A stretch of 64,000 nucleotides of DNA from Spirochaetota bacterium. Its GTDB lineage: Bacteria; Spirochaetota; Brachyspiria; Brachyspirales; JACRPF01. The translations under genes and the position numbers were made by a program. Every line of letters starts with the position of its first letter. The first letter of the stretch is position 1. Below the pieces are notes generated by a model. The model was not told the origin of the DNA, did not search any database, and was given only the letters and a program-made list of their open reading frames with translations. Below, one piece after another: positions 43,881-55,713 of this stretch. Where the stretch lies: contig JACRPF010000012.1 of the NCBI GenBank assembly GCA_016214035.1, positions 3,051 to 67,050 on the forward strand. The letters run 5' to 3'.

Positions 43881-45761
43881 ATGGAAACACCCGCACGAAA
43901 AACACTGTTACCTCTGAGCGTCGGCGCATTGGGCGTGGTCTTTGGTGACATCGGAACATCACCGTTATACACCCTTCGCGAGTGTTTTTCACCGCAGCAC
44001 GGCCTTTCATACACATTTCCGGACGTTGCGGGGATATTATCGCTTGTTTTCTGGGCGTTGACGCTTGTCGTCACGGTAAAATACGTCACCTTCATCATGC
44101 GGGCGGACAATCAGGGCGAAGGCGGCATTCTCTCGCTGCTTGCGCTTATTATAGGCAATCGTGACATCAAAAAGACCGTTTTCCCCATCGTCGTGGTGGG
44201 TCTTACCGGTATGTCGCTCCTCCTCGCAGAAGGCATGATAACGCCGGCTATTACCGTGTTGAGCGCCGTTGAAGGGCTTAAAATGGCCGCGAGCGGCATG
44301 CAGCCGTTCATTATACCTATCAGCATCATCATCCTTATTGCGCTGTTCTTCATTCAGCGGCGCGGCACCGGTTTTATCGGCGTGATATTCGGGCCGCTCA
44401 TGATAGTCTGGTTCCTGTCTATCGCCGCACTCGGCATCAATTCCATCATCAAATCGCCTGAAATACTCTGGGCTGTCAATCCCTGGTTCGCGATGCAGTT
44501 CTTTATGACGCATAAAATAGCCGGCGTATTGGTGCTCGGCGCCGTAGTGCTTGCCATCACCGGGGCGGAAGCGCTGTATGCCGACCTCGGCCATTTCGGG
44601 AAATCACCGATACGGCTTGCATGGCTCGCGCTCGTTTTTCCATCACTCGTCCTTAATTATTTCGGGCAGGGAGCCGCGGTGCTCCGTCACGGCGAGGCTG
44701 CCGTTGCCAATCCTTTCTTCTATATCGCGCCGTCGTGGGCGCTTTTTCCGATGATAGCTATCGCAACCATCGCCGCGGTGATTGCTTCTCAGGCGCTCAT
44801 ATCCGGGGCTTTCTCTCTGGTGCAGCAGGCAATGCAGCTCGGGTATGTACCTAAGATGAAAATCATTCACACGTCATACGCCACACACGGTCAGATTTAT
44901 ATGCCGGTTATCAACTATTTTCTCATGTTCGCATGCATCTTCCTTGTCATGTTTTTCCGCTCATCGAGCAATCTCGCCTCCGCATACGGTATTTCCGTCA
45001 TGGGGACGATGACCTGTACAAGTATTCTTTTTTTCATCATGTCGCGGCAGGTATGGCGCTGGCCGCTGGCGCTGAGTATGGTCATCTGTATGGTTTTTTT
45101 CGTCGTGGACGGTACGTTCCTGTCCGCCAATGCGAATAAGGTGATGAGCGGCGGATGGTTCCCTGTTGTCGTTGCCATAGTGTTTTTCACGGTGATGCAG
45201 ACCTGGAAGCGCGGCAGTACGGAAATACACCGCATCATGTCCGCGGGAAGCGTTCCGTTCGACAATTTTCTGAACGGCCTCGCGCACAAGCAGTACGCGG
45301 TCACCCGTATACCCGGCACCGCGGTGTTCATGATCGGCAACCCGAAGAACAAGCTCAGCGTACTCCTGCATCACCTCAAACACAATAAATCCCTGCATGA
45401 GTCGGTTATCCTTCTCTCATTCGCCTTTGATAAGGTGCCGTCGGTGGCGCGCAGTGAACGGTTGTCTATCGTGCGTCACATTGAGGGCTTCTGCGAGATC
45501 CGCGCGCGCTTCGGCTATATGGAATCGCCGCGTATAGATGAGGTCATCGAGCTTTGCAATGAGAACGGCTTCACGCTGAACGTGTATCAGCTGAGTTTCT
45601 TTGTGGGCAGGATCAGTCTCAGCGTCAGTGAAAAGCCGGGCTCCGGCAATTGGCCGCGGCGGCTTTTCCGGTTCATGCACCGGAACGCGGAATCGGCCAT
45701 CGATTATTTCGGCATACCGCCCGGACGCGTTATTGAAGTCGGCACGCAGATAGAACTTTGA
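43881..45761 (+). CDS. kup: KUP/HAK/KT potassium uptake protein (copy 1)
   Basis: 626 aa. GALGVVFGDIGTSPLYTLRECF and RADNQGEGGILSL. Confidence 0.9.
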   Translation: METPARKTLLPLSVGALGVVFGDIGTSPLYTLRECFSPQHGLSYTFPDVAGILSLVFWALTLVVTVKYVTFIMRADNQGEGGILSLLALIIGNRDIKKTVFPIVVVGLTGMSLLLAEGMITPAITVLSAVEGLKMAASGMQPFIIPISIIILIALFFIQRRGTGFIGVIFGPLMIVWFLSIAALGINSIIKSPEILWAVNPWFAMQFFMTHKIAGVLVLGAVVLAITGAEALYADLGHFGKSPIRLAWLALVFPSLVLNYFGQGAAVLRHGEAAVANPFFYIAPSWALFPMIAIATIAAVIASQALISGAFSLVQQAMQLGYVPKMKIIHTSYATHGQIYMPVINYFLMFACIFLVMFFRSSSNLASAYGISVMGTMTCTSILFFIMSRQVWRWPLALSMVICMVFFVVDGTFLSANANKVMSGGWFPVVVAIVFFTVMQTWKRGSTEIHRIMSAGSVPFDNFLNGLAHKQYAVTRIPGTAVFMIGNPKNKLSVLLHHLKHNKSLHESVILLSFAFDKVPSVARSERLSIVRHIEGFCEIRARFGYMESPRIDEVIELCNENGFTLNVYQLSFFVGRISLSVSEKPGSGNWPRRLFRFMHRNAESAIDYFGIPPGRVIEVGTQIEL

Positions 45762-45788: not shown

Positions 45789-47693
45789 ATGTCTTCTGAT
45801 ACAGGCAATGATTCGCTGAAAAAAGCGATAGCCCCGCTGAGTCTCGGCGCGCTTGGTGTCGTATTCGGCGATATCGGCACATCACCGCTCTATACGCTTC
45901 GCGAGTGCTTTAAACCGGCGCACGGGCTTACATTCTCGTTTCCCGATGTTGTCGGTGTCGCCTCGCTGATATTCTGGGCTATCGTAATGGTGGTCGTGGT
46001 GAAATACGTCGTGTTCATCATGCGGGCGGACAACCAGGGCGAGGGCGGCATTCTTTCACTGCTCGCACACATTATCCACAGCAGCAGTCCGGATCAGAAA
46101 AAATCGAAACGATATTCGCTGATCATCATCGTTGGGCTTGTCGGTACTGCGCTTCTGCTTGCCGACGGTATGATTACACCCGCTATCAGCGTACTCGGCG
46201 CTATCGAGGGATTGAAGACCGCTTCGCCCGGTTTCGAGCGTTATATCGTACCGCTTGCCATTGTCATATTGACCGCGTTATTTCTGTTCCAGCGCAGCGG
46301 TACCGCACGCATCGGTATTGTGTTCGGTCCGGTCATGGTTATATGGTTTCTGACAATAGGAACGCTCGGTCTCGTGTCCATCATCCGTTCGCCCGAGGTG
46401 CTCTGGGGTCTTAATCCCTGGTACGCGGTGCGTTACTTTCTTATACACAAGATTGCCGGTGTGCTGATACTGGGCGCGGTGGTACTGGCGATAACCGGCG
46501 CCGAAGCGCTTTTTGCCGATCTCGGTCATTTCGGGAAACGGCCCATCCGCATAGCGTGGTTCGCGCTCGTGTTTCCGGCATTGATACTCAATTATTTCGG
46601 GCAGAGCGCCGCGGTGCTCCGTGACGGTGCGGCTGCTATTGTGAACCCGTTTTATTATATCGCCCCGTCATGGGCGCTGTACCCGGTCATCATCATCGCG
46701 ACCGCAGCTGCGATCATCGCATCGCAGGCGCTCATTTCCGGCGCTTTTTCGCTCGTGCAGCAGGCGATGCAGCTTGGTTATGTGCCGAAGATGAAGATCG
46801 TCCATACCTCGTTCGATATGCACGGCCAGATATACCTGCCGACGCTCAATTATTTTCTCATGGCAGCCTGTATCTTTCTGGTACTTTTCTTCAAATCGTC
46901 TGATAACCTCGCGTCGGCTTACGGGATATCGGTCATGGGGACGATGCTGTCGACGACGATCCTGTTTTTCGTTGTGACGCGTCAGGTGTGGCGCTGGAAG
47001 CTCATCGCGGCGCTGCCGGTATGTCTGCTCTTCTTTGTTGTTGATGCACTGTTCCTTTCGGCGAATATTTCCAAGATCGTGACGGGCGGATGGTTTCCGG
47101 TGCTGGCTGCGGTCATTTTTCTCACGATGATGCAGACCTGGAAGCGGGGCAGCCTTGAGATATACCGTGCCATGTCGGTTGCCAATGTGCCGTTCGATAA
47201 TTTTCTCAACGGACTTGCCGGCAATCAGTATGATGTGACGCGTCTCTCGGGTACGGCGGTGTTCATGATCGGCAACCTGAATAACAAGCTCAGCGTGCTC
47301 CTGCATCATCTGAAACATAACCGTATGCTCCATGAGACGGTTATCCTCATGTCCATCGTATTCGAGCGTGTGCCGTCGGTTTCGCCGGGGCAGCGTCTTG
47401 ATATCAAGCGATATCAGGAGGGGTTTATCGAGGTCCGCGCACGCTACGGTTATATGGAATCACCGCGCATGGAGGATATCATCGGCCTTCTGAACACGAG
47501 CGGTCTGTCGCTGAATATCCATCAGATAAGTTTTTATGTCGGTCATATAAGTCTTGCCATTTCAAAAAGATCCAAGGCCGCGTGGGGCCGGCATATTTTC
47601 CGGCTCATGCACCGTAATGCGGAATCGGCCATCGATTATTTCGGCATACCGCCGGGACGCGTTATTGAAGTAGGCACGCAGATAGAACTGTAG
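45789..47693 (+). CDS. kup: KUP/HAK/KT potassium uptake protein (copy 2)
   Basis: 634 aa. Same motifs as copy 1; tandem paralogue 27 nt downstream. Confidence 0.9.
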   Translation: MSSDTGNDSLKKAIAPLSLGALGVVFGDIGTSPLYTLRECFKPAHGLTFSFPDVVGVASLIFWAIVMVVVVKYVVFIMRADNQGEGGILSLLAHIIHSSSPDQKKSKRYSLIIIVGLVGTALLLADGMITPAISVLGAIEGLKTASPGFERYIVPLAIVILTALFLFQRSGTARIGIVFGPVMVIWFLTIGTLGLVSIIRSPEVLWGLNPWYAVRYFLIHKIAGVLILGAVVLAITGAEALFADLGHFGKRPIRIAWFALVFPALILNYFGQSAAVLRDGAAAIVNPFYYIAPSWALYPVIIIATAAAIIASQALISGAFSLVQQAMQLGYVPKMKIVHTSFDMHGQIYLPTLNYFLMAACIFLVLFFKSSDNLASAYGISVMGTMLSTTILFFVVTRQVWRWKLIAALPVCLLFFVVDALFLSANISKIVTGGWFPVLAAVIFLTMMQTWKRGSLEIYRAMSVANVPFDNFLNGLAGNQYDVTRLSGTAVFMIGNLNNKLSVLLHHLKHNRMLHETVILMSIVFERVPSVSPGQRLDIKRYQEGFIEVRARYGYMESPRMEDIIGLLNTSGLSLNIHQISFYVGHISLAISKRSKAAWGRHIFRLMHRNAESAIDYFGIPPGRVIEVGTQIEL

Positions 47694-47750: not shown

Positions 47751-47779
47751 TTGCAAAAACAACGCCGCTTTGATATAAT
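47751..47779 (+). promoter_or_regulatory. sigma-70-type promoter for the DUF1538/PII-like pair
   Basis: TTGCAA (47751-47756), 17-nt spacer, TGaTATAAT extended -10 (hexamer 47774-47779). Preceded by a T8 run (47731-47738) after a weak hairpin downstream of kup copy 2. Confidence 0.6.
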
Positions 47780-47820
47780 AAATTTGTGCGGTGATTTCAA
47801 CATCATTCGGGGAGCGTACC

Positions 47821-49935
47821 ATGGCAACACAGCAGGCAACCGGCAAAGTAAACATCTCGTTGAAGCAGGCGTTCGGCATGCTCGGGCCGTACGCGTGGGC
47901 GAAGATCCTCGATCAGATTAAATCGGTATCGCTCATCGTTGTATACCTTGTTCTCTTTCAGGTCCTTATTCTCGGTGTCCCTATTGCAAACGCTTCCATT
48001 CTCGCGCTTGGTATCGGCGTGGTGATTATCGGTCTTGCTTTTTTTATGGAAGGTCTTTTTCTCGGACTCATGCCCCTCGGTGAGACCTGCGGAGTCAAGC
48101 TTCCGCAAAAGACGGTATTGCCCGTCATACTTATTTTTGCATTCCTGCTCGGGGTGGGTGCAACGTTCGCTGAGCCCGCCATCGGTGTTCTCAAACAGGC
48201 CGGGTCGTCGGTCACGGCATGGGATGCACCGCTGCTGTTCCTTCTGCTCAATAAGAATTCCGGCTTGCTCGTATGGGCCGTCGGTGCCGGTGTCGGTATT
48301 GCCGTTCTTTTCGGCATGCTCCGTTTCATGTATAACTGGTCGCTCAAGCCGTTCATCTATGTGCTTTATGCAATTGCCGGCGCCTTGTCCATCTGGAGTT
48401 ATTTTGAACCCAATATGGTGTATCTCACCGGTCTTGCCTGGGACTGCGGCGGTGTTACCACCGGTCCGGTGACCGTACCGCTCGTTCTCGCGCTCGGTAT
48501 CGGCATCTGCCGCGCGGCGACGAAAGGCGATGCGGGCAGCAGCGGCGGCGGATTCGGCGTAGTAACGCTTGCGTCGGCCTTTCCCATTATAGCGGTGCTC
48601 GGACTCGGGCTCATATTTCTCGGTTCCGTACCGAAGCCGATGAGTGCGGTAAAACTGTTCAGCACCGAGCAGCGCGATAAAACATTGAAAATGTTCGACA
48701 GCGAGGACGCCATGCGCGGCTATGCGCTCCTGAACGCATCCTATGACGCGCAGCTTGCCGCGTTCAACAATGATACGAAATCGATGCTCGCCTTTGTCAC
48801 CGAGCTCGGTACGAACGCCGCAAAACGTACGGCGGTTGCCGGCGGTGACGCGGCATTTACCGGGTGGCTTTTAAAACGCGGAAGTCAGGAACAGCGGATC
48901 GCCGTGTACGGTTCACCTGAAGCGGTTAAAGCGGCAATTGACCGTTTATCCGCGGCACCGGCGGTCAAGATTGACTTCCGGAACATTTTCGTCGTCAATG
49001 GTCTCGGCGCATTACAGGCAATCGTTCCGCTCAGTCTGTTCCTGCTGTTTGCGCTGTTCGTCATTCTCCGTGAAAAACTGAAACGCGCCGATGAGATATT
49101 TCTCGGCATACTGTTCGCGGTCGTCGGGATGACGCTCTTCAGTATAGGCATAACACTCGGTTTATCGCGTCTGGGCGAGGATGTGGGCAAGAAACTGCCG
49201 TCATCGTTCAAAGCCATTGAAATGGCGGAGCAGACGCAAGTCATCCGGAATTTCAATCCGGCTATCGTCAACAAAGCGATTAGTCCCGACGGCAGTGTCG
49301 ACGAGTTTTTCTATAAAAAAGCGGGCACCGCGTATGCGGCATTTCCCTACCGCTCGAATAATTTCGATCCGCATACGGCGCAGTATGTCTATACCCCCAC
49401 GCGAGGGCCTCTGTTCGGAGGAGTTATGGGTATTGTCATCGTACTCTTCTTCGGATTCATGATGGGGTATGGCGCAACACTTGCCGAACCCGCGCTCAAC
49501 GCGCTTGGAGCCACGGTTGAAGAGCTTACCGTCGGGTCGTTCAAAAAAAGTCTCCTCATGCAGGCGGTCGCTATCGGTGTTGGTGTGGGTATTGCGGTTG
49601 GTGTGGCAAAGATCATATACGGTCTTCCGCTTATCTGGCTGCTGGTGCCGCCGTATCTTATCCTCATGGTATTGACCATTCTGTCGAGTGAGGAATTCGT
49701 GAACATCGGATGGGATAGCGCCGGCGTGACTACCGGTCCGGTAACCGTACCGCTTGTACTTGCAATGGGTCTCGGCATCGGAGGACAGGTGGGCGTAGTT
49801 GAGGGGTTCGGCATTCTTGCGCTCGCGTCGGTATACCCGATCCTCTCGGTGCTCTGCGTCGGCCTCTTTGTAACGATGAAACGTAAATCAGCGCTGAAGG
49901 AAGTGACCACCGCTTCATCTTCGGCTGCGGCATAG
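47821..49935 (+). CDS. fused tandem DUF1538 integral membrane protein (unknown transporter-like)
   Basis: Trimmed to the ATG at 47821 (SD GGGGAG). The two halves share FFMEGLFLGLMPLGE/LFSIGITLGLSRLGE, GATFAEPAIGVL/GATLAEPALNAL and WDCGGVTTGPVTVPLVLALGIG/WDSAGVTTGPVTVPLVLAMGLGIG. Confidence 0.8.
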   Translation: MATQQATGKVNISLKQAFGMLGPYAWAKILDQIKSVSLIVVYLVLFQVLILGVPIANASILALGIGVVIIGLAFFMEGLFLGLMPLGETCGVKLPQKTVLPVILIFAFLLGVGATFAEPAIGVLKQAGSSVTAWDAPLLFLLLNKNSGLLVWAVGAGVGIAVLFGMLRFMYNWSLKPFIYVLYAIAGALSIWSYFEPNMVYLTGLAWDCGGVTTGPVTVPLVLALGIGICRAATKGDAGSSGGGFGVVTLASAFPIIAVLGLGLIFLGSVPKPMSAVKLFSTEQRDKTLKMFDSEDAMRGYALLNASYDAQLAAFNNDTKSMLAFVTELGTNAAKRTAVAGGDAAFTGWLLKRGSQEQRIAVYGSPEAVKAAIDRLSAAPAVKIDFRNIFVVNGLGALQAIVPLSLFLLFALFVILREKLKRADEIFLGILFAVVGMTLFSIGITLGLSRLGEDVGKKLPSSFKAIEMAEQTQVIRNFNPAIVNKAISPDGSVDEFFYKKAGTAYAAFPYRSNNFDPHTAQYVYTPTRGPLFGGVMGIVIVLFFGFMMGYGATLAEPALNALGATVEELTVGSFKKSLLMQAVAIGVGVGIAVGVAKIIYGLPLIWLLVPPYLILMVLTILSSEEFVNIGWDSAGVTTGPVTVPLVLAMGLGIGGQVGVVEGFGILALASVYPILSVLCVGLFVTMKRKSALKEVTTASSSAAA

Positions 49936-49945
49936 GAGGCGTATC

Positions 49946-51061
49946 ATGGAAACAAAAAAATACGCTGAAATCACCTGCAAAGTATATAAGACGATAGCTC
50001 ACCTTGTCACCGATGCGCTGCAGAAGGCAGGCATAACCGAAGTGCATATACAGACCGGCCGGGCGGTGGTGCTCCGTGAAAAGAAAGGAATCCTGGGCAT
50101 CGGTGCCGGCGAGGTGCTCGATGAAGACCCCGCCGAGGTATTCCGTTTCCATGTGCCGTCAGAACAGGCCGATGCGGTCATGAACACCGTCATCGCCGCG
50201 GCGCATCTTGATTCTCCGGGACGCGGAAGTATTTTTGTGAACGATGCGGAAGTCATCCGCAGTGTACATGAACCGGTGCAGCTATCGGTTCCAACCGAGC
50301 GGCCGGTAACGCTGGCATCAGGCCTTATGGGCATCTGCTGCATCGTCCAGCGCGGTCAGGGCAATACCGTCATTCAGTCGGCACTCGATATGGGTTTTTC
50401 GGTGCCGGTGGCGACATTCGGTGAGGGAACCGGTTTACGGGATAAACTCGGTATTCTCCGCATCACGATACCCGCCGAAAAAGAAGTCATCAATATGACG
50501 GTAGCCGAGCAGGACGCACGCGAGGCTATGGATACGCTGGTGGACGCCGGCAAGCTCGATCAGCCGGGAAAAGGTTTCATATATACGTATCCCGTGGGAC
50601 GCGGGCTTATCAATACGAAAATATTCCGCGGTACGCAGAAACATGCCGCAAGTGTCGAGCAGATGATTTCCGCGATCGACGACATCAAAGGCTCGATGGA
50701 ATGGCGCAAACGTTCCGGTGAAGGCCGCAGCGGCGCCGGCGGACGCAAATATCTCAGTAATCTTGTCAACTTCACGCTGGTCTGCAATGAGGGCCGTGCG
50801 CATGAACTCGTTAAGGCCGCCATGTCGGTGGGTGCAGCGGGTGCCACCATCAGCAAGCTCCGGTATTCACGGCTGAACGGTACGGGTGATGATTCAGTTT
50901 CGCCCGCGCGCGAGATGAGCGACCTTATCGTAGGCGCCGCGCAAGTGGATGCCATACGGAAAGCCATTGAAGACGCAGACGGTTTCGGAAAAACATCATC
51001 GGCAATGATTACGCTCAAACCGGTGCCTTCCGCATGCACTTATCTCGGCGGGAGCCGTTAA
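49946..51061 (+). CDS. single-chain protein with three PII-like (GlnB-fold-like) modules
   Basis: 371 aa. Module 1 is ~aa 8-104 (..DSPGRGSIFVNDAEV). Module 2 is ~aa 128-217 (..DQPGKGFIYTYPV). Module 3 is ~aa 275-358 and degenerate. SD AGGAGG overlaps the stop of the DUF1538 gene. Confidence 0.7.
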   Translation: METKKYAEITCKVYKTIAHLVTDALQKAGITEVHIQTGRAVVLREKKGILGIGAGEVLDEDPAEVFRFHVPSEQADAVMNTVIAAAHLDSPGRGSIFVNDAEVIRSVHEPVQLSVPTERPVTLASGLMGICCIVQRGQGNTVIQSALDMGFSVPVATFGEGTGLRDKLGILRITIPAEKEVINMTVAEQDAREAMDTLVDAGKLDQPGKGFIYTYPVGRGLINTKIFRGTQKHAASVEQMISAIDDIKGSMEWRKRSGEGRSGAGGRKYLSNLVNFTLVCNEGRAHELVKAAMSVGAAGATISKLRYSRLNGTGDDSVSPAREMSDLIVGAAQVDAIRKAIEDADGFGKTSSAMITLKPVPSACTYLGGSR

Positions 51062-51142: not shown

Positions 51143-52411
51143 TCAGAATATCATATTCTGTGCCAGCAGAACAAGAAACCCTGCAACATATCCCGCCGCC
51201 GCAAGCGGACCGATCCGCTTCAAGTACCAGAAGAATTCTATTTTCTCCATACCCATTGCGGCGACACCGGCTGCCGAGCCGATGATAAGCATACTGCCGC
51301 CCGTACCCGCCGCATACGCGAGCATCTGCCAGAATGCATGGTCAACCGGATACACCGCATGCGGATACATGCTTATCACCGCCGCGACGATGGGGACGTT
51401 GTCGACTACCGACGATAGGATGCCGATGCAGAACAGGATGATATTCTGTTCCTTGAATGTAGATGAAAGCATATCCGCCGCATGCCGGAGAATGCCTGCC
51501 GCTTCAAGCGATGCCACCGCGGTGAGTATGCCCAGAAAGAATAGAATACTCGTGGCGTCGATGCGCTGCAGGGCGTTCGCCACTGAAAGTTTTGTCCGGT
51601 AGTCGTATTCCTTGCCGCGGTGCATGACCTCGGTGATGATCCAGAGCACGGAAAGGCCCAGGAGTATCCCCATATACGGCGGCAGATGCGTCAGCGATTT
51701 GAATACCGGTATGAATATCAGCGCGCCGATGCCCGTGAAGAAAACGATATTCTTCTCAAGTGACACGATGTCTTTGCGTTTCTCGGGCGGTTGTCCCGGA
51801 ACGCCGCCGCGCATGCCGATTGAAGCGATGATGAGCGGTACGAGCAGGCAGGCAAGGCTCGGCAGAAACAGATGCGTGATGGTGTTCATCGATGTGATGT
51901 TCCCGGCTATCCAGAGCATGGTGGTGGTCACATCGCCGATGGGGGACCATGCGCCGCCCGCATTCGCCGCGATGATGACGATGCCGATGAAGGTGAGGCG
52001 GTCATTGCGGTCATCCACCAGCCGGCGCGTCATCGATGTCATGACGATGGCCGTGGTGAGATTGTCGAGGACGGCGGAGAGGAAGAACGTCACGAAACCG
52101 ATTATCCACAGGAGCAGCCGTTTGTTCTTCGTCCTGATGCGCGAGGTGATGACGTCGAAGCCGTTATGCGCGTCGATGAGCTCTACGATGGTCATCGCCC
52201 CGAGCAGGAAAAAAAGAATTTCGGAGATTCCCCCGAGATGTTCCCTGAGTGAAACGATGATGCTGTGACGTTCCGGCGAAAACACGATGAAGATGACCCA
52301 TGTCACTACGCCGGTCAGAAGCGCGCTTGCAGCCTTGTTGATATGTATGCCGTTCTCAAGAGCGATGAAAAGATAGCCTACGATGAAGATAAGGATGATG
52401 ATGGTTTCCAT
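51143..52411 (-). CDS. nhaD: NhaD/ArsB-superfamily Na+/H+ antiporter (copy 2)
   Basis: 422 aa. METIIILIFIVGYLFIALENGIHINKAAS. Colinear paralogue of 20384..21655. Confidence 0.85.
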   Translation of the reverse strand: METIIILIFIVGYLFIALENGIHINKAASALLTGVVTWVIFIVFSPERHSIIVSLREHLGGISEILFFLLGAMTIVELIDAHNGFDVITSRIRTKNKRLLLWIIGFVTFFLSAVLDNLTTAIVMTSMTRRLVDDRNDRLTFIGIVIIAANAGGAWSPIGDVTTTMLWIAGNITSMNTITHLFLPSLACLLVPLIIASIGMRGGVPGQPPEKRKDIVSLEKNIVFFTGIGALIFIPVFKSLTHLPPYMGILLGLSVLWIITEVMHRGKEYDYRTKLSVANALQRIDATSILFFLGILTAVASLEAAGILRHAADMLSSTFKEQNIILFCIGILSSVVDNVPIVAAVISMYPHAVYPVDHAFWQMLAYAAGTGGSMLIIGSAAGVAAMGMEKIEFFWYLKRIGPLAAAGYVAGFLVLLAQNMIF

Positions 52412-52520: not shown

Positions 52521-52549
52521 TTGACATGTGAATGGGTTTCAGGTATAGT
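52521..52549 (+). promoter_or_regulatory. sigma-70-type promoter for nhaA
   Basis: TTGACA (52521-52526), 17-nt spacer, TATAGT (52544-52549). The ATG at 52556 sits at the expected transcription start. Confidence 0.55.
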
Positions 52550-52555
52550 GGACAT

Positions 52556-53911
52556 ATGAAGATAAAAAGAACGCCTCCGACACTCATCAGCAAGCGCGAT
52601 CGCCTGCCGGTGGATTATTTACTTCATCCGTTTCAATATGTCACTCGTGAGGAGGCATTCGGGGGCGTTTTGCTTATCGCGGCAACAGTTGTCGCACTGG
52701 TTCTGGCAAATTCTCCATGGAAGTTGCTTTATGATTCGATGATCGAAAGTAAATTTTCCATCGGATTTTCATGGTTCGGGCTGAAAATGTCCCTGGGGCA
52801 TTGGATTAACGACGGCCTTATGGCGCTGTTCTTTTTTGTCGTGGGGCTTGAGATCAAACGTGAAGTGTTTGTCGGGGAACTTGCATCCGTCCGGCGTTCG
52901 GCGCTGCCCATAGCGGCGGCGCTGGGGGGGATGCTGGTGCCGGCCGCGGTATACCTCGCCATAAATGCGGGACAGCCCGGTATGCGCGGCTGGGGGGTGC
53001 CGATGGCGACCGATATCGCGTTTTCCATCGGCGCACTCGCGCTCATGGGTAAACGCGTGCCGCTGGGCGTCAAGGTTTTTGTCACCGCACTTGCAATCGT
53101 CGATGATATCGGGGCGGTGCTCGTTATAGCCGTATTTTACACCGGACAGTTGTCGTGGCAGCCGCTCGTGGTGTGCGGACTTTTTCTGGGCATGCTTGTC
53201 GCCGTGAACAGGCTCGGGGTCCGGCATCCGCTCGTGTACGGCATTCTCGGGATATGTCTGTGGGTGGCGATGCTGAAATCCGGCGTGCATGCAACCATCG
53301 CGGGGATACTCACGGCGGTGATCGTTCCCTCACGCTCACGCATCAATGCCCCCGCATTCATCGAAGATAACCGGCTGTATATGAGCGAGTTCAAAGCGGG
53401 CGAAACGGGTGACGGACTCGTGCTTACCAGTAAACGCCAGCAGGCGGCGCTGCGCGCGCTTGAGACCGCATGCGGGAACGTGCAGTCTCCCATGCAGCAG
53501 CTTGAGCATGCCGTATTGCCGTGGGTGCGCTTCATCATAATGCCGCTTTTTGCGTTCGCGAATGCCGGTATAACGGTTACCGGAAACACCGTTTTTGCGA
53601 TGCAGCACCCCGTTGCCATAGGTATCATGGCCGGGCTTGTATTCGGTAAGCCCGCCGGCATCACCCTGTTCTCATGGATAGCGGTGCGTGCCGGAATTGC
53701 CGAGCTGCCGGCCGGTGTGGCGTGGCGTCATCTTATTGCGGCAGCGATGGTGGCGGGCATCGGATTTACAATGTCGCTCTTTATTGCGGAACTTGCGTTC
53801 AAGGATACACTGCTTCTCGACACCGCGAAAATAGGTATTATGCTGGGTTCGTTCATCGCCGCTGTTGCGGGGATGGCGGTTCTCCGGCTCGTTACGCGGC
53901 GACAGACATGA
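52556..53911 (+). CDS. nhaA: Na+/H+ antiporter NhaA
   Basis: WINDGLMALFFFVVGLEIKRE and the ALAIVDDIGAVLVIA (DD pair) motifs. The start is set to the ATG at 52556 because the ATG at 52532 lies inside the promoter spacer. Confidence 0.85.
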   Translation: MKIKRTPPTLISKRDRLPVDYLLHPFQYVTREEAFGGVLLIAATVVALVLANSPWKLLYDSMIESKFSIGFSWFGLKMSLGHWINDGLMALFFFVVGLEIKREVFVGELASVRRSALPIAAALGGMLVPAAVYLAINAGQPGMRGWGVPMATDIAFSIGALALMGKRVPLGVKVFVTALAIVDDIGAVLVIAVFYTGQLSWQPLVVCGLFLGMLVAVNRLGVRHPLVYGILGICLWVAMLKSGVHATIAGILTAVIVPSRSRINAPAFIEDNRLYMSEFKAGETGDGLVLTSKRQQAALRALETACGNVQSPMQQLEHAVLPWVRFIIMPLFAFANAGITVTGNTVFAMQHPVAIGIMAGLVFGKPAGITLFSWIAVRAGIAELPAGVAWRHLIAAAMVAGIGFTMSLFIAELAFKDTLLLDTAKIGIMLGSFIAAVAGMAVLRLVTRRQT

Positions 53912-54081: not shown

Positions 54082-54939
54082 ATGCCGCAAAAAAGAATTA
54101 TTGTCACCTTGGTCGTTATCATTGCCGCGCTCTCAATAGCAGCCACCGGTCTTGCTCTTTTCTCCGGAGGCGGTGCGGAGCCATCAAGCATCACGTCCGT
54201 ACGGGGGCAGCCGGTTGTACTCTACGGCAAAGGCCTCTACCATCACATGAGCGCTGATGTTGCGGTGCAGGGCATTGCGCAGGATTGGGTAACCCTCTGT
54301 CTCGGCGTGCCGTTGCTTCTTCTCTCGCTTCTGTTGTCCCTTCGCGGTTCCCTGCGTTGGCGACTTGTACTTTCCGGAACTCTTGGATACTTTTTTGTCA
54401 CCTATCTGTTTTATCTGGTCATGGCGATGTACAATCCGCTGTTTCTCGTATACACAGCACTATTGGGCACAACGTTTTTCGCGCTTGCCTTTGCACTAAC
54501 GTCATTCGATTTGAACCATCTGGCGAGGAACGCGAATCCCGCGGTATCCGTCAAAGTCGCTGGTATATTCCTGCTTGTAAACAGCCTGCTCATCGGTATG
54601 CTGTGGATGAGCGTCATTGTACCGCCGCTAATTGATGGCAGCATATACCCTCGTTCTCTTGAGCACTACACGACTCTCATCGTCCAGGGATTTGATCTCG
54701 GGCTGCTCCTTCCGCTATCGGTATTCTCCGGCGTTCTGCTCATTCGTCGTAGTCCTCTCGGCTTCCTGCTCGGTCCTGTCTATCTCGTTTTTCTTTCATT
54801 GCTCATGACCGCCCTGGTTTCGAAAATTGCATTCATGGGTTCGCAGGGACAGCCCATTATGCCGGCAATTTTCATAATTCCCGTGCTTGCTTCGGGCGCC
54901 ATTTATTTTTCGGCGCGTCTCATTCGAAATATTTCATAA
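54082..54939 (+). CDS. polytopic membrane protein, unknown function
   Basis: 285 aa and about 7 hydrophobic helices. No recognisable motif. Confidence 0.6.
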   Translation: MPQKRIIVTLVVIIAALSIAATGLALFSGGGAEPSSITSVRGQPVVLYGKGLYHHMSADVAVQGIAQDWVTLCLGVPLLLLSLLLSLRGSLRWRLVLSGTLGYFFVTYLFYLVMAMYNPLFLVYTALLGTTFFALAFALTSFDLNHLARNANPAVSVKVAGIFLLVNSLLIGMLWMSVIVPPLIDGSIYPRSLEHYTTLIVQGFDLGLLLPLSVFSGVLLIRRSPLGFLLGPVYLVFLSLLMTALVSKIAFMGSQGQPIMPAIFIIPVLASGAIYFSARLIRNIS

Positions 54940-54981: not shown

Positions 54982-55713
54982 ATGAATCAGGTTCAAGTCT
55001 TTGCCAACAGCCGTTTTGTTTTCTGGATGGCCTTTGCCTGCGCTGTGACAACACTCGTCACGTTCGCCATTGCAATCATGACCCCGCCTCTTTCGGGTCC
55101 TTTTTGTAAAGCCGGTTGTTTTCAATATCCTTACCTTGACATTGCCTCCCGATTTCCGCGGGATTATTACTGGATGTTCCCTGCCATGATTTCGAACCTT
55201 TTTTTTGTGGCATTGATGGTAGGCCTGCATTATCGTGCAGAGGCCTGCCGCCGGGTTTTTTCGATGTTTGCCCTGATAATCTCATCCATGTCGGCACTCG
55301 TGCTCATTGGGGATTACTTTGTGCAGGTGTCGGTCATACAGCCAAGCGTACTGGCGAAAGAATCTGACGGTGTTTCGCTTCTCACCCAATTTAATCCCCA
55401 CGGTCTGTTTATCGCCTTGGAAGAACTGGGCTACCTCCTGATGAGCCTGGCCATGGCAAGCATTGCATTTGCCCTTTCCAAAGCATCGCTTCTTGAGAGG
55501 GTTGTGCGGTGGATTTTCATCGGTCAAGCGGTGCTTGCCATTGTGCTGCTCGTAACGATTGCGGGATTCATGGGGCATGCACGAGAGTATGTCTTTGAAG
55601 TGGCGATCATTTCTGTAGCCTGGTTGGCGCTCATTGCAGGCGCAGGTATGCTTTCTGTGGTGCTTCGGAGAGATATTCCACGAAAGGCTGAACGAATACA
55701 GCAAAGGCAGTAA
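54982..55713 (+). CDS. polytopic membrane protein, unknown function
   Basis: 243 aa and about 6 hydrophobic helices. Follows the previous gene by 42 nt. Confidence 0.6.
   Translation: MNQVQVFANSRFVFWMAFACAVTTLVTFAIAIMTPPLSGPFCKAGCFQYPYLDIASRFPRDYYWMFPAMISNLFFVALMVGLHYRAEACRRVFSMFALIISSMSALVLIGDYFVQVSVIQPSVLAKESDGVSLLTQFNPHGLFIALEELGYLLMSLAMASIAFALSKASLLERVVRWIFIGQAVLAIVLLVTIAGFMGHAREYVFEVAIISVAWLALIAGAGMLSVVLRRDIPRKAERIQQRQ

Follow-up and report, generated by a model that had tools for sequence, protein, structure and literature searches.

In the 64,000-nucleotide stretch of Spirochaetota bacterium DNA analysed here (the window), a forward-strand gene at 49946..51061 encodes, from an ATG start, a protein of 371 amino acids (aa) whose single chain comprises three homologous PII-fold modules, here called M1, M2, and M3. 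The gene stands directly downstream of one for a membrane protein with two fused DUF1538 repeats, presumed to be a transporter. Few signal transducers are as widespread as the PII proteins, which are symmetric homotrimers with three identical, anticooperative ligand clefts. The triple-PII protein looks like a new, single-chain architecture of this known, PII-like kind, and it is judged probable that it forms a monomeric pseudo-trimer, which would hold one effector in the cleft between M2 and M3 and would dock on, and gate, the DUF1538 protein. The two-gene module is present in many phyla, so that its biology is not peculiar to a single genome.

Three PII-like modules in one polypeptide

Three PII-like modules in a single polypeptide had been proposed in an earlier, sequence-only reading of this gene, and the internal repeat, the predicted fold, and the structural matches all bear the proposal out. 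The peptides that it quoted are present, with the module starts at aa 8-30 (EITCKVYKTIAHLVTDALQKAGI), aa 129-151 (GICCIVQRGQGNTVIQSALDMGF), and aa 276-298 (FTLVCNEGRAHELVKAAMSVGAA), and the C-terminal blocks at aa 89-103 in M1 (DSPGRGSIFVNDAEV) and aa 205-217 in M2 (DQPGKGFIYTYPV). By BLASTP, aa 1-118 match aa 119-232, that is M1 against M2, with 31% identity over 91 aa (E 2e-8). For hhalign, the modules were cut as blocks from a family alignment of 69 sequences (alignment A1) and compared profile against profile. M1 matches M2 with a probability of 98% (E 2.2e-13) and M2 matches M3 with a probability of 96% over 96 columns (E 4.8e-9); M1 against M3, taken alone, is weak. The third module had been described as degenerate, which is correct for its T- and B-loops, but the match to M2 identifies M3 as a true homologous PII-like module.

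The AlphaFold2 (AF2) model of the 371-aa chain, built from alignment A1, has a mean predicted local distance difference test score (pLDDT) of 88.6 and a predicted template modelling score (pTM) of 0.87. Its secondary structure runs beta-alpha-beta-beta-alpha-beta three times, at aa 3-104, 124-221, and 273-365, with the features of the PII superfamily fold, namely ferredoxin-like domains of some 100-110 aa that have the T-loop between strands beta2 and beta3 and the B-loop ahead of beta4. When the model is compared with the Protein Data Bank (PDB) by Foldseek, canonical PII/GlnK chains are the only credible matches, at a probability of 1.00. The template modelling (TM) scores for these are 0.56-0.73 when normalised to the target and about 0.2 when normalised to the query, which means that each PII/GlnK chain spans one module, roughly a third of the model. 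There is no single-chain structure with three PII domains among the 50 PDB matches listed. Whole-chain matches to cytokinin oxidase and aspartate kinase are spurious, having root-mean-square deviations of 15-19 A and TM scores of about 0.2.

The exact 371-aa sequence is present at NCBI in a metagenome-assembled genome (MAG) of a 'Spirochaetes bacterium', where it is annotated as 'P-II family nitrogen regulator'. This name, the match of the fold to GlnB/GlnK chains, and a Pfam P-II score just above the threshold (25.9 bits against a cut-off of 25, over aa 57-105 only) would suggest an ordinary nitrogen-regulatory PII. That is very improbable, given that the protein has three times the usual length, that among the separate modules M1 scores only 17 bits and M2 and M3 have no P-II match, and that the NCBIfam model for GlnB (PRK10858) gives 19 bits where the cut-off is 202. 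Neither of the PROSITE signature patterns (T-loop Y-[KR]-G-[AS]-[AE]-Y and C-terminal [ST]-x3-G-[DY]-G-[KR]-[IV]-[FW]) occurs in the 371 aa, and the Tyr51/uridylylation motif is absent. The shared fold is clear and the positions of the T-loop, the B-loop, and K58 are recognisable, but members of the GlnB/GlnK family (PF00543) are homotrimers of subunits of about 112 aa, whereas here one chain carries three diverged modules. GlnB and GlnK also sit in a context of nitrogen metabolism, whereas the conserved neighbour here is DUF1538, not amtB, glnA, or nif.

Pairing with a fused DUF1538 gene

The upstream gene, at 47791..49935 on the same strand, is an open reading frame (ORF) of 714 aa from a GTG; the DUF1538 product at NCBI has 704 aa, placing the start at the ATG at 47821. 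It had been regarded as a single DUF1538 protein, which proves to be incorrect. Pfam DUF1538 matches twice (E 1.5e-110), and the two halves, which are 36% identical (E 6e-28), are a fused pair of an UmpA-like N-terminal half (NCBIfam, 198 bits) and an UmpB-like C-terminal half (153 bits), for which the equivalog cut-offs are 490 and 500. Both repeats, within 47821-49935, carry the motifs GATxAEPA and WDxxGVTTGPVTVPLVLAxGxG. The AF2 model has a pLDDT of 81.8 and a pTM of 0.81, and Foldseek against the PDB gives no significant match for it (best E 0.02, TM at most 0.19); the 50 matches listed include no SbtA chain. By Foldseek the DUF1538 family appears to be without a solved structural relative, and neither SbtA nor AmtB, nor any further transporter of known structure, offers a structural analogy. 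A tblastn search of plasmids with one DUF1538 half found nothing.

The Shine-Dalgarno sequence of the triple-PII gene, AGGAGG (49934..49939, + strand, read directly from the sequence), overlaps the TAG stop codon of the DUF1538 gene (49933-49935), so that the two genes look translationally coupled; in homologous loci they likewise abut or overlap. A candidate sigma-70-like promoter for the two-gene operon lies upstream at 47751..47779 (+ strand), TTGCAA-17-TATAAT with an extended TG and 10 of 12 matches, as judged by consensus match only.

The functional link to the upstream DUF1538 gene that had been suggested is supported, and it is a tight one, the pair being found in the window, in all four homologue contigs that were fetched, and in 62 of 69 assessable loci. 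The loci come from a search with DUF1538 motifs through one genome for each GTDB species, which yielded at least 579 relatives, the best 80 being used. A full-length triple-PII gene is downstream in 62 of these 80, another 11 are cut by a contig end (two of which show an N-terminal fragment of the triple-PII gene), 6 belong to the sister type described below, and 1 has no PII-like gene. The triple-PII gene is thus almost always directly downstream of a fused DUF1538 gene. The only exception among the 69 is the Fibrobacterota MAG locus L022 (4722-7370), where a long DUF1538 gene of the triple-PII type is followed by a convergent unrelated gene. The best 80-120 matches are fused forms of DUF1538 throughout, in the protein search as in the genome scan. 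Two loci have DUF1538 as two ORFs, with the full triple-PII gene following (L021, 4563-5615 and 5759-6814; L001, 5879-7579 and 7597-8004), which could be either a natural split or an assembly frameshift.

Comparison with the DUF1538 proteins of the sister type reveals two insertions in the transporter, one all-alpha, between the halves (48646..48954, + strand; aa 276-378 of 704), the other beta-rich, within the second half (49237..49392, + strand; aa 473-524). Both are delimited by the alignment and by the AF2 model, which has helices in the first. The all-alpha insertion, of about 105 aa and with a pLDDT of about 90, is present only in transporters that are paired with a triple-PII protein, and the beta-rich one, of about 57 aa, is likewise specific to them.

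A broad family of fixed length

More than 600 clusters at 90% identity belong to the family, and those listed are almost all 364-391 aa, covering 97-100% of the query. Scanned by HMMER against 1.84 billion representatives, the family profile returned 268 proteins at E<=1e-30, nearly all of 360-390 aa and each with the whole profile in one stretch. The three-module architecture is therefore fixed across a broad, multi-phylum family. The phyla in which the two-gene module occurs include Spirochaetota, Desulfobacterota, Gemmatimonadota, Latescibacterota, Cloacimonadota, Verrucomicrobiota, Bacteroidota, and Planctomycetota. The family has automatic database names only, 'P-II family nitrogen regulator' and 'hypothetical protein'.

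Shorter, apparently 'two-module' members of 216-283 aa are probably fragments. The sole one checked, P0365, is a wrongly called gene on a 4-kb contig of poor quality, on which the DUF1538 gene is also uncalled. In one Spirochaetia MAG (L074, 6172-7362 and 7750-8754) there are tandem triple-PII genes after DUF1538, the second copy running off the contig end.

The AB-type sister system

In a second type of operon, here called AB-type, a shorter fused DUF1538 gene (580-600 aa) is followed by separate genes for single-domain PII-like proteins A and B. It was found at six genome loci, among them that of the cultured Hydrogenovibrio halophilus DSM 15072 (L058, 6392-7248), and on five further contigs. 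On one more contig, L086, the A and B genes have no adjacent DUF1538, and a transposase gene is directly upstream. The handles of the sister type, L086 included, are L058, L066, L073, L077, L083-L087, L089, and L090. Protein A (118-133 aa) scores 36.1 bits with Pfam P-II, against the cut-off of 25, and belongs to a family of at least 1,920 clusters; protein B (104-152 aa) has no Pfam match. Within one subunit, A carries GAQGAT, aligned with G24-T29 of Escherichia coli GlnB, a GxG..RERLG T-loop, the K58-equivalent lysine, and a TPGMG B-loop, and so holds every element of the cleft.

Profile comparison matches A to M2, M1, and M3 with probabilities of 99.8%, 98.8%, and 98.5%, so that homology can be followed from Pfam P-II to A and from there to all three modules. 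For B the values are 97.3% with M1, 97.3% with M2, and 24% with M3; A and B match each other at 99.0%, and B is thus PII-like by profile. All three modules lie nearer to A than to B, which makes the triple protein look like the triplication of an A-like gene rather than a fusion of A and B. Like the triple protein, A and B occupy the operon position after a fused DUF1538 and have in common with it ITC in beta1, an R-E/D-K/R-LG T-loop, and an LD.PG.G B-loop. M1 and M2 of the triple protein contain ITC, R-[ED]-[KR]-x-G-x-L, and LD.PG.G, and M3 has part of the beta1 motif. A and B differ from the triple protein in being two genes, whose products presumably form homo- or heterotrimers, and in having a DUF1538 partner that is about 110 aa shorter, with an N-terminal extension and without the two insertions. 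The DUF1538-linked PII-like proteins, defined here by these motifs and by a position directly after a fused DUF1538 gene, are an uncharacterised group, in which A and B are the nearest relatives of the triple protein.

The existence of separate single-domain genes in a related system raises the question of whether the 371-aa ORF might be an artefact, in which PII-like genes were fused by mis-assembly or a frameshift. The probability of this is negligible. A length of about 370 aa and one constant order of modules recur in hundreds of independent assemblies across many phyla, the 268 representatives of the HMMER scan among them; the closeness of all the modules to A does not fit a concatenation of A and B; and the conserved linker between M2 and M3 is unique to the fused form.

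Three non-equivalent modules and their predicted clefts

M1 (49952..50257, + strand; aa 3-104) has the most canonical-looking sequence, with a weak Pfam P-II match and an hhalign match to E. coli GlnB with a probability of 73% over 99 columns, yet it is the least conserved module. In place of the T-loop it is modelled with a long, ordered beta-hairpin (strands at aa 32-46 and 55-70, pLDDT 88-97). It retains a related loop, VLREKKGILG, together with PGRGS, its B-loop being PGRGSIF.

M2 (50315..50629, + strand; aa 124-228) is the most conserved module. Its T-loop, FGEGTGLRDKLGILRITIPAEK (aa 158-179), is near-invariant at G159, G161, G163, R165, K167, R172, and K179, the last of which aligns with K58 of GlnK. 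The B-loop, PGKGFIY, is invariant at G208, G210, and F211, and the strand motif is changed to G.CVP. The T-loop has a pLDDT of 61-73 in the AF2 model, which suggests that it is flexible.

The linker that joins M2 to M3 (50642..50713, + strand; aa 233-256, HAASVEQMISAIDDIKGSMEWRKR) has a predicted helix at aa 234-248, a pLDDT of 59-72, and invariant residues A235, E238, D245, W253, and R254. M3 (50756..51043, + strand; aa 271-366) has its strands and helices in the PII order in the AF2 model and is without the T- and B-loop motifs. It has the strand motif GAAGAT (aa 296-301), with G296, A297, and G299 invariant, aligned with G24-T29 of GlnB. Mean column identity is highest for the linker segment, aa 229-256, at 0.65, followed by M2 at 0.60, M3 at 0.47, and M1 at 0.41.

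In structures of GlnK with ATP, one subunit contributes its T-loop base, K58, and B-loop, and its neighbour contributes the G27-T29 strand. The ligand sites of PII trimers lie in the intersubunit clefts and are framed by the T-, B-, and C-loops (PMC9974498). In the triple protein, M2 has the T-loop, the K58-equivalent lysine, and the B-loop, while M3 has only GAAGAT. Combined with the geometry of PII clefts, this division would give one canonical-like cleft, at M2/M3, and two altered ones. It predicts that the M2/M3 cleft is the only one to keep both halves of a canonical-like effector site. The loops and clefts had been expected to be non-equivalent, and the splitting of motifs across the modules and their different conservation agree with this. 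Among the canonical ligands of ATP and 2-oxoglutarate (Q39, K58, K90, R101, and R103), only K58 has an equivalent, K179. The position of K90 is S95 in M1 and F211 in M2, and R105 of M1, which aligns with R101, is not conserved.

The T-loop of M2 and the linker are conserved but have low pLDDT, as would be expected if they were to gain order by binding a partner. The linker may be a docking element.

There are also cysteines in beta1, C131/C132 in M2 (50336-50341) and C280 in M3 (50783-50785), of which C132 and C280 are at least 90% conserved. A further cysteine, C364 (51035-51037), is in a C-terminal ACTYLG motif. A redox or metal role for these cysteines is conceivable.

Packing of the modules

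The protein cannot be a homotrimer of separate subunits; its three modules would appear to pack against one another within the chain, as a pseudo-trimer imitating the homotrimer of PII. The pTM of 0.87 in the AF2 model, over three domains, implies that the modules are placed relative to each other with confidence. A pseudo-likelihood co-evolution model was made from 309 sequences, with an effective number of sequences (Neff) of 254 for 371 positions. The co-evolving pairs within modules agree with the fold (beta1-beta4, alpha1-alpha2, alpha2-beta4, and the beta2-beta3 hairpin), and several pairs between modules, including M1-M3 pairs, are among the top 90.

If the chain is closed into a pseudo-threefold ring, the maps of M1 to M2, M2 to M3, and M3 to M1 should match in register. 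With 3x3 smoothing, the cyclic register gives a sum r of 0.122, against -0.006+-0.049 for a circularly shifted null (p 0.006), whereas the transposed register gives -0.114. The top shared pair of elements is one module's T-loop base with the beta1-alpha1 loop and the start of beta2 of the next, which is the orientation that places the loops of M2 against the GAAGAT of M3.

There may instead be no intramolecular pseudo-trimer, with the modules either loosely tethered or assembling between chains, for example as M1-, M2-, and M3-type trimers of three chains or as swapped networks. The linkers are long, at about 19 and about 45 aa, with a lower pLDDT of 59-76, and the co-evolution is weak. Such an arrangement is nevertheless improbable, as the pTM would be hard to reach without confident placement of the domains, the top inter-module pairs include M1-M3, the cyclic register outperforms the transposed one, and the cleft motifs, divided as they are between M2 and M3, are understandable only when these modules are neighbours.

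A proposed role as a transporter regulator

In the mechanism that is thought probable, the monomeric pseudo-trimer would be the soluble partner in a two-gene transporter module, made 1:1 with the DUF1538 protein. An A-like ancestor would have been triplicated, after which the three inter-module clefts diverged. Each chain would then bind one small-molecule effector, at M2/M3, for which an adenine nucleotide is the most plausible guess, being the default of the superfamily. Binding would reposition the near-invariant, flexible T-loop of M2, and this loop, probably with the hairpin of M1 and the conserved linker, would dock on the DUF1538 protein at its cytoplasmic face and so gate the transporter. 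Docking and gating are proposed by analogy with GlnK, which plugs AmtB, and SbtB, which locks SbtA, and the role of the triple protein is taken to be regulatory rather than structural.

Several points weigh against this mechanism. The cyclic co-evolution signal is a weak one, because the unsmoothed test is not significant, the 3x3 smoothing was chosen afterwards, and the intra-module positive control reaches only r = 0.06-0.10, with a Neff that is low for the number of positions. Mean-field direct coupling analysis on 250 sequences is too noisy, giving p of about 0.09 in the cyclic test. The phosphate-binding residues K90 and R101/R103 are missing, which is why the adenine nucleotide is a guess, and docking on DUF1538 is itself proposed by analogy. 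The UmpA and UmpB scores are so far below their cut-offs that the substrate of those proteins cannot be transferred to this one, the relationship being that of the same Pfam family only. Finally, the transporter gene of L022 has no PII-like gene downstream.

The only functional report for DUF1538 is that of UmpAB from Halomonas zhaodongensis, a Na+(Li+,K+)/H+ antiporter; in E. coli its pair of DUF1538 genes was enough by itself, and the paper mentions no PII-like gene (PMC5484666). This bears on the alternative that the pseudo-trimer is a constitutive structural or catalytic subunit on DUF1538, either a cytoplasmic cap or a nucleotide hydrolase resembling the SbtB apyrase. The strict and apparently 1:1 operon pairing, the loss of the canonical ATP-binding residues, the DUF1538 insertions that occur only alongside the triple form, and the apyrase activity of SbtB (PMC9974498) would all be in keeping with this. 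It is considered rather unlikely, as constructs without a PII-like gene gave antiport in E. coli (PMC5484666), the related transporter at L022 has no partner, and the glycine-rich loop, lysine, and B-loop of M2, with the GAAGAT of M3, look like a small-molecule site that has been maintained.

A more speculative extension of the regulatory mechanism, which is possible but doubtful, is that the covalent pseudo-trimer evolved to resolve a mismatch of symmetry. DUF1538 has two repeats and is pseudo-dimeric, so that a threefold-symmetric PII could not bind it equivalently. M1 and M2, which keep the R-E/D-K-x-G-x-L loop, would address the two halves of the transporter, and M3, having lost its loops, would be the third wall of the trimer and contribute GAAGAT to the sole intact cleft, M2/M3. 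One ligand molecule would in this way control one asymmetric transporter. If true, this would be the first natural single-chain PII and a system in which communication from cleft to cleft could be studied.

A natural single-chain PII with differentiated clefts would show how the trimer can be sub-functionalised, and each cleft and loop could be mutated separately, which is impossible in a homotrimer. For the DUF1538 family, which has thousands of clusters and a single functional report, a dedicated sensor attached to the transporter would make both regulation and substrate testable.

Comparison with other PII systems

The pairing of a PII-like protein with a transporter recalls GlnK-AmtB. The gene order is that of SbtB-SbtA, where the PII-like gene is also co-transcribed directly downstream of the transporter gene. 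In that system SbtB's T-loops lock SbtA, and docking is nucleotide-dependent (PMC9974498). The differences are that SbtB is a symmetric homotrimer on a trimeric SbtA, whereas here a single asymmetric chain is paired with a two-repeat fused DUF1538, that the triple protein has no R-loop, and that its partner is not SbtA.

No Pfam match to PstA/DarA, CutA, DUF190, or DUF2179 was found for the whole protein or for any module, up to E = 10, and protein A matches DUF190 only at E 0.15. NifI1/NifI2 are PII assemblies of non-identical subunits, which are separate polypeptides regulating nitrogenase, and their relationship to the triple protein is no closer than the PII fold. The replacement of a homo-oligomer by a chain of repeated domains, with specialisation of the sites, is known from the tandem-domain BMC-T shell proteins and the monomeric herpesvirus dUTPase, whose folds and functions are unrelated to PII. 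In the open-access literature, no paper was found on a single-chain or tandem PII trimer or on a link between PII and DUF1538. The triple protein would work like a PII-like transporter regulator and is not a member of GlnB/GlnK, SbtB, PstA/DarA, CutA, DUF190, or DUF2179.

Genomic neighbourhood

Upstream of the operon are tandem genes for Kup-type K+ transporters (43881-45761 and 45789-47693, + strand; 626 and 634 aa), the second of which matches Pfam K_trans with E 5e-182. Downstream are a CitMHS/NhaD-like permease of 422 aa on the minus strand (51143-52411), a divergent NhaA Na+/H+ antiporter of 459 aa (52532-53911, + strand), and two adjacent predicted multi-pass membrane proteins of 285 and 243 aa without a Pfam match (54082-54939 and 54982-55713, + strand).

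A context of K+ homeostasis and c-di-AMP had been suggested, as speculation, and is not supported. A homologue of Kup or NhaA is next to none of 84 related loci, no related DUF1538 locus has the Kup duplication beside it, PstA/DarA is not matched in Pfam, and by Rfam the window is free of riboswitches, for c-di-AMP or otherwise. The nearest flanking genes of 66 operons belong to 108 different Pfam families, none of them seen in more than 5 of 101 proteins. As the Kup and Nha genes are not conserved, they represent, with DUF1538, a local neighbourhood of monovalent-ion transport rather than a conserved context. Within a few kb of the operons at L002, L085, and L090 there are CPA-type Na_H_Exchanger genes carrying fused TrkA_N or cNMP-binding domains, which may be a loose hint of a cation/proton theme around DUF1538 and its PII-like partners.

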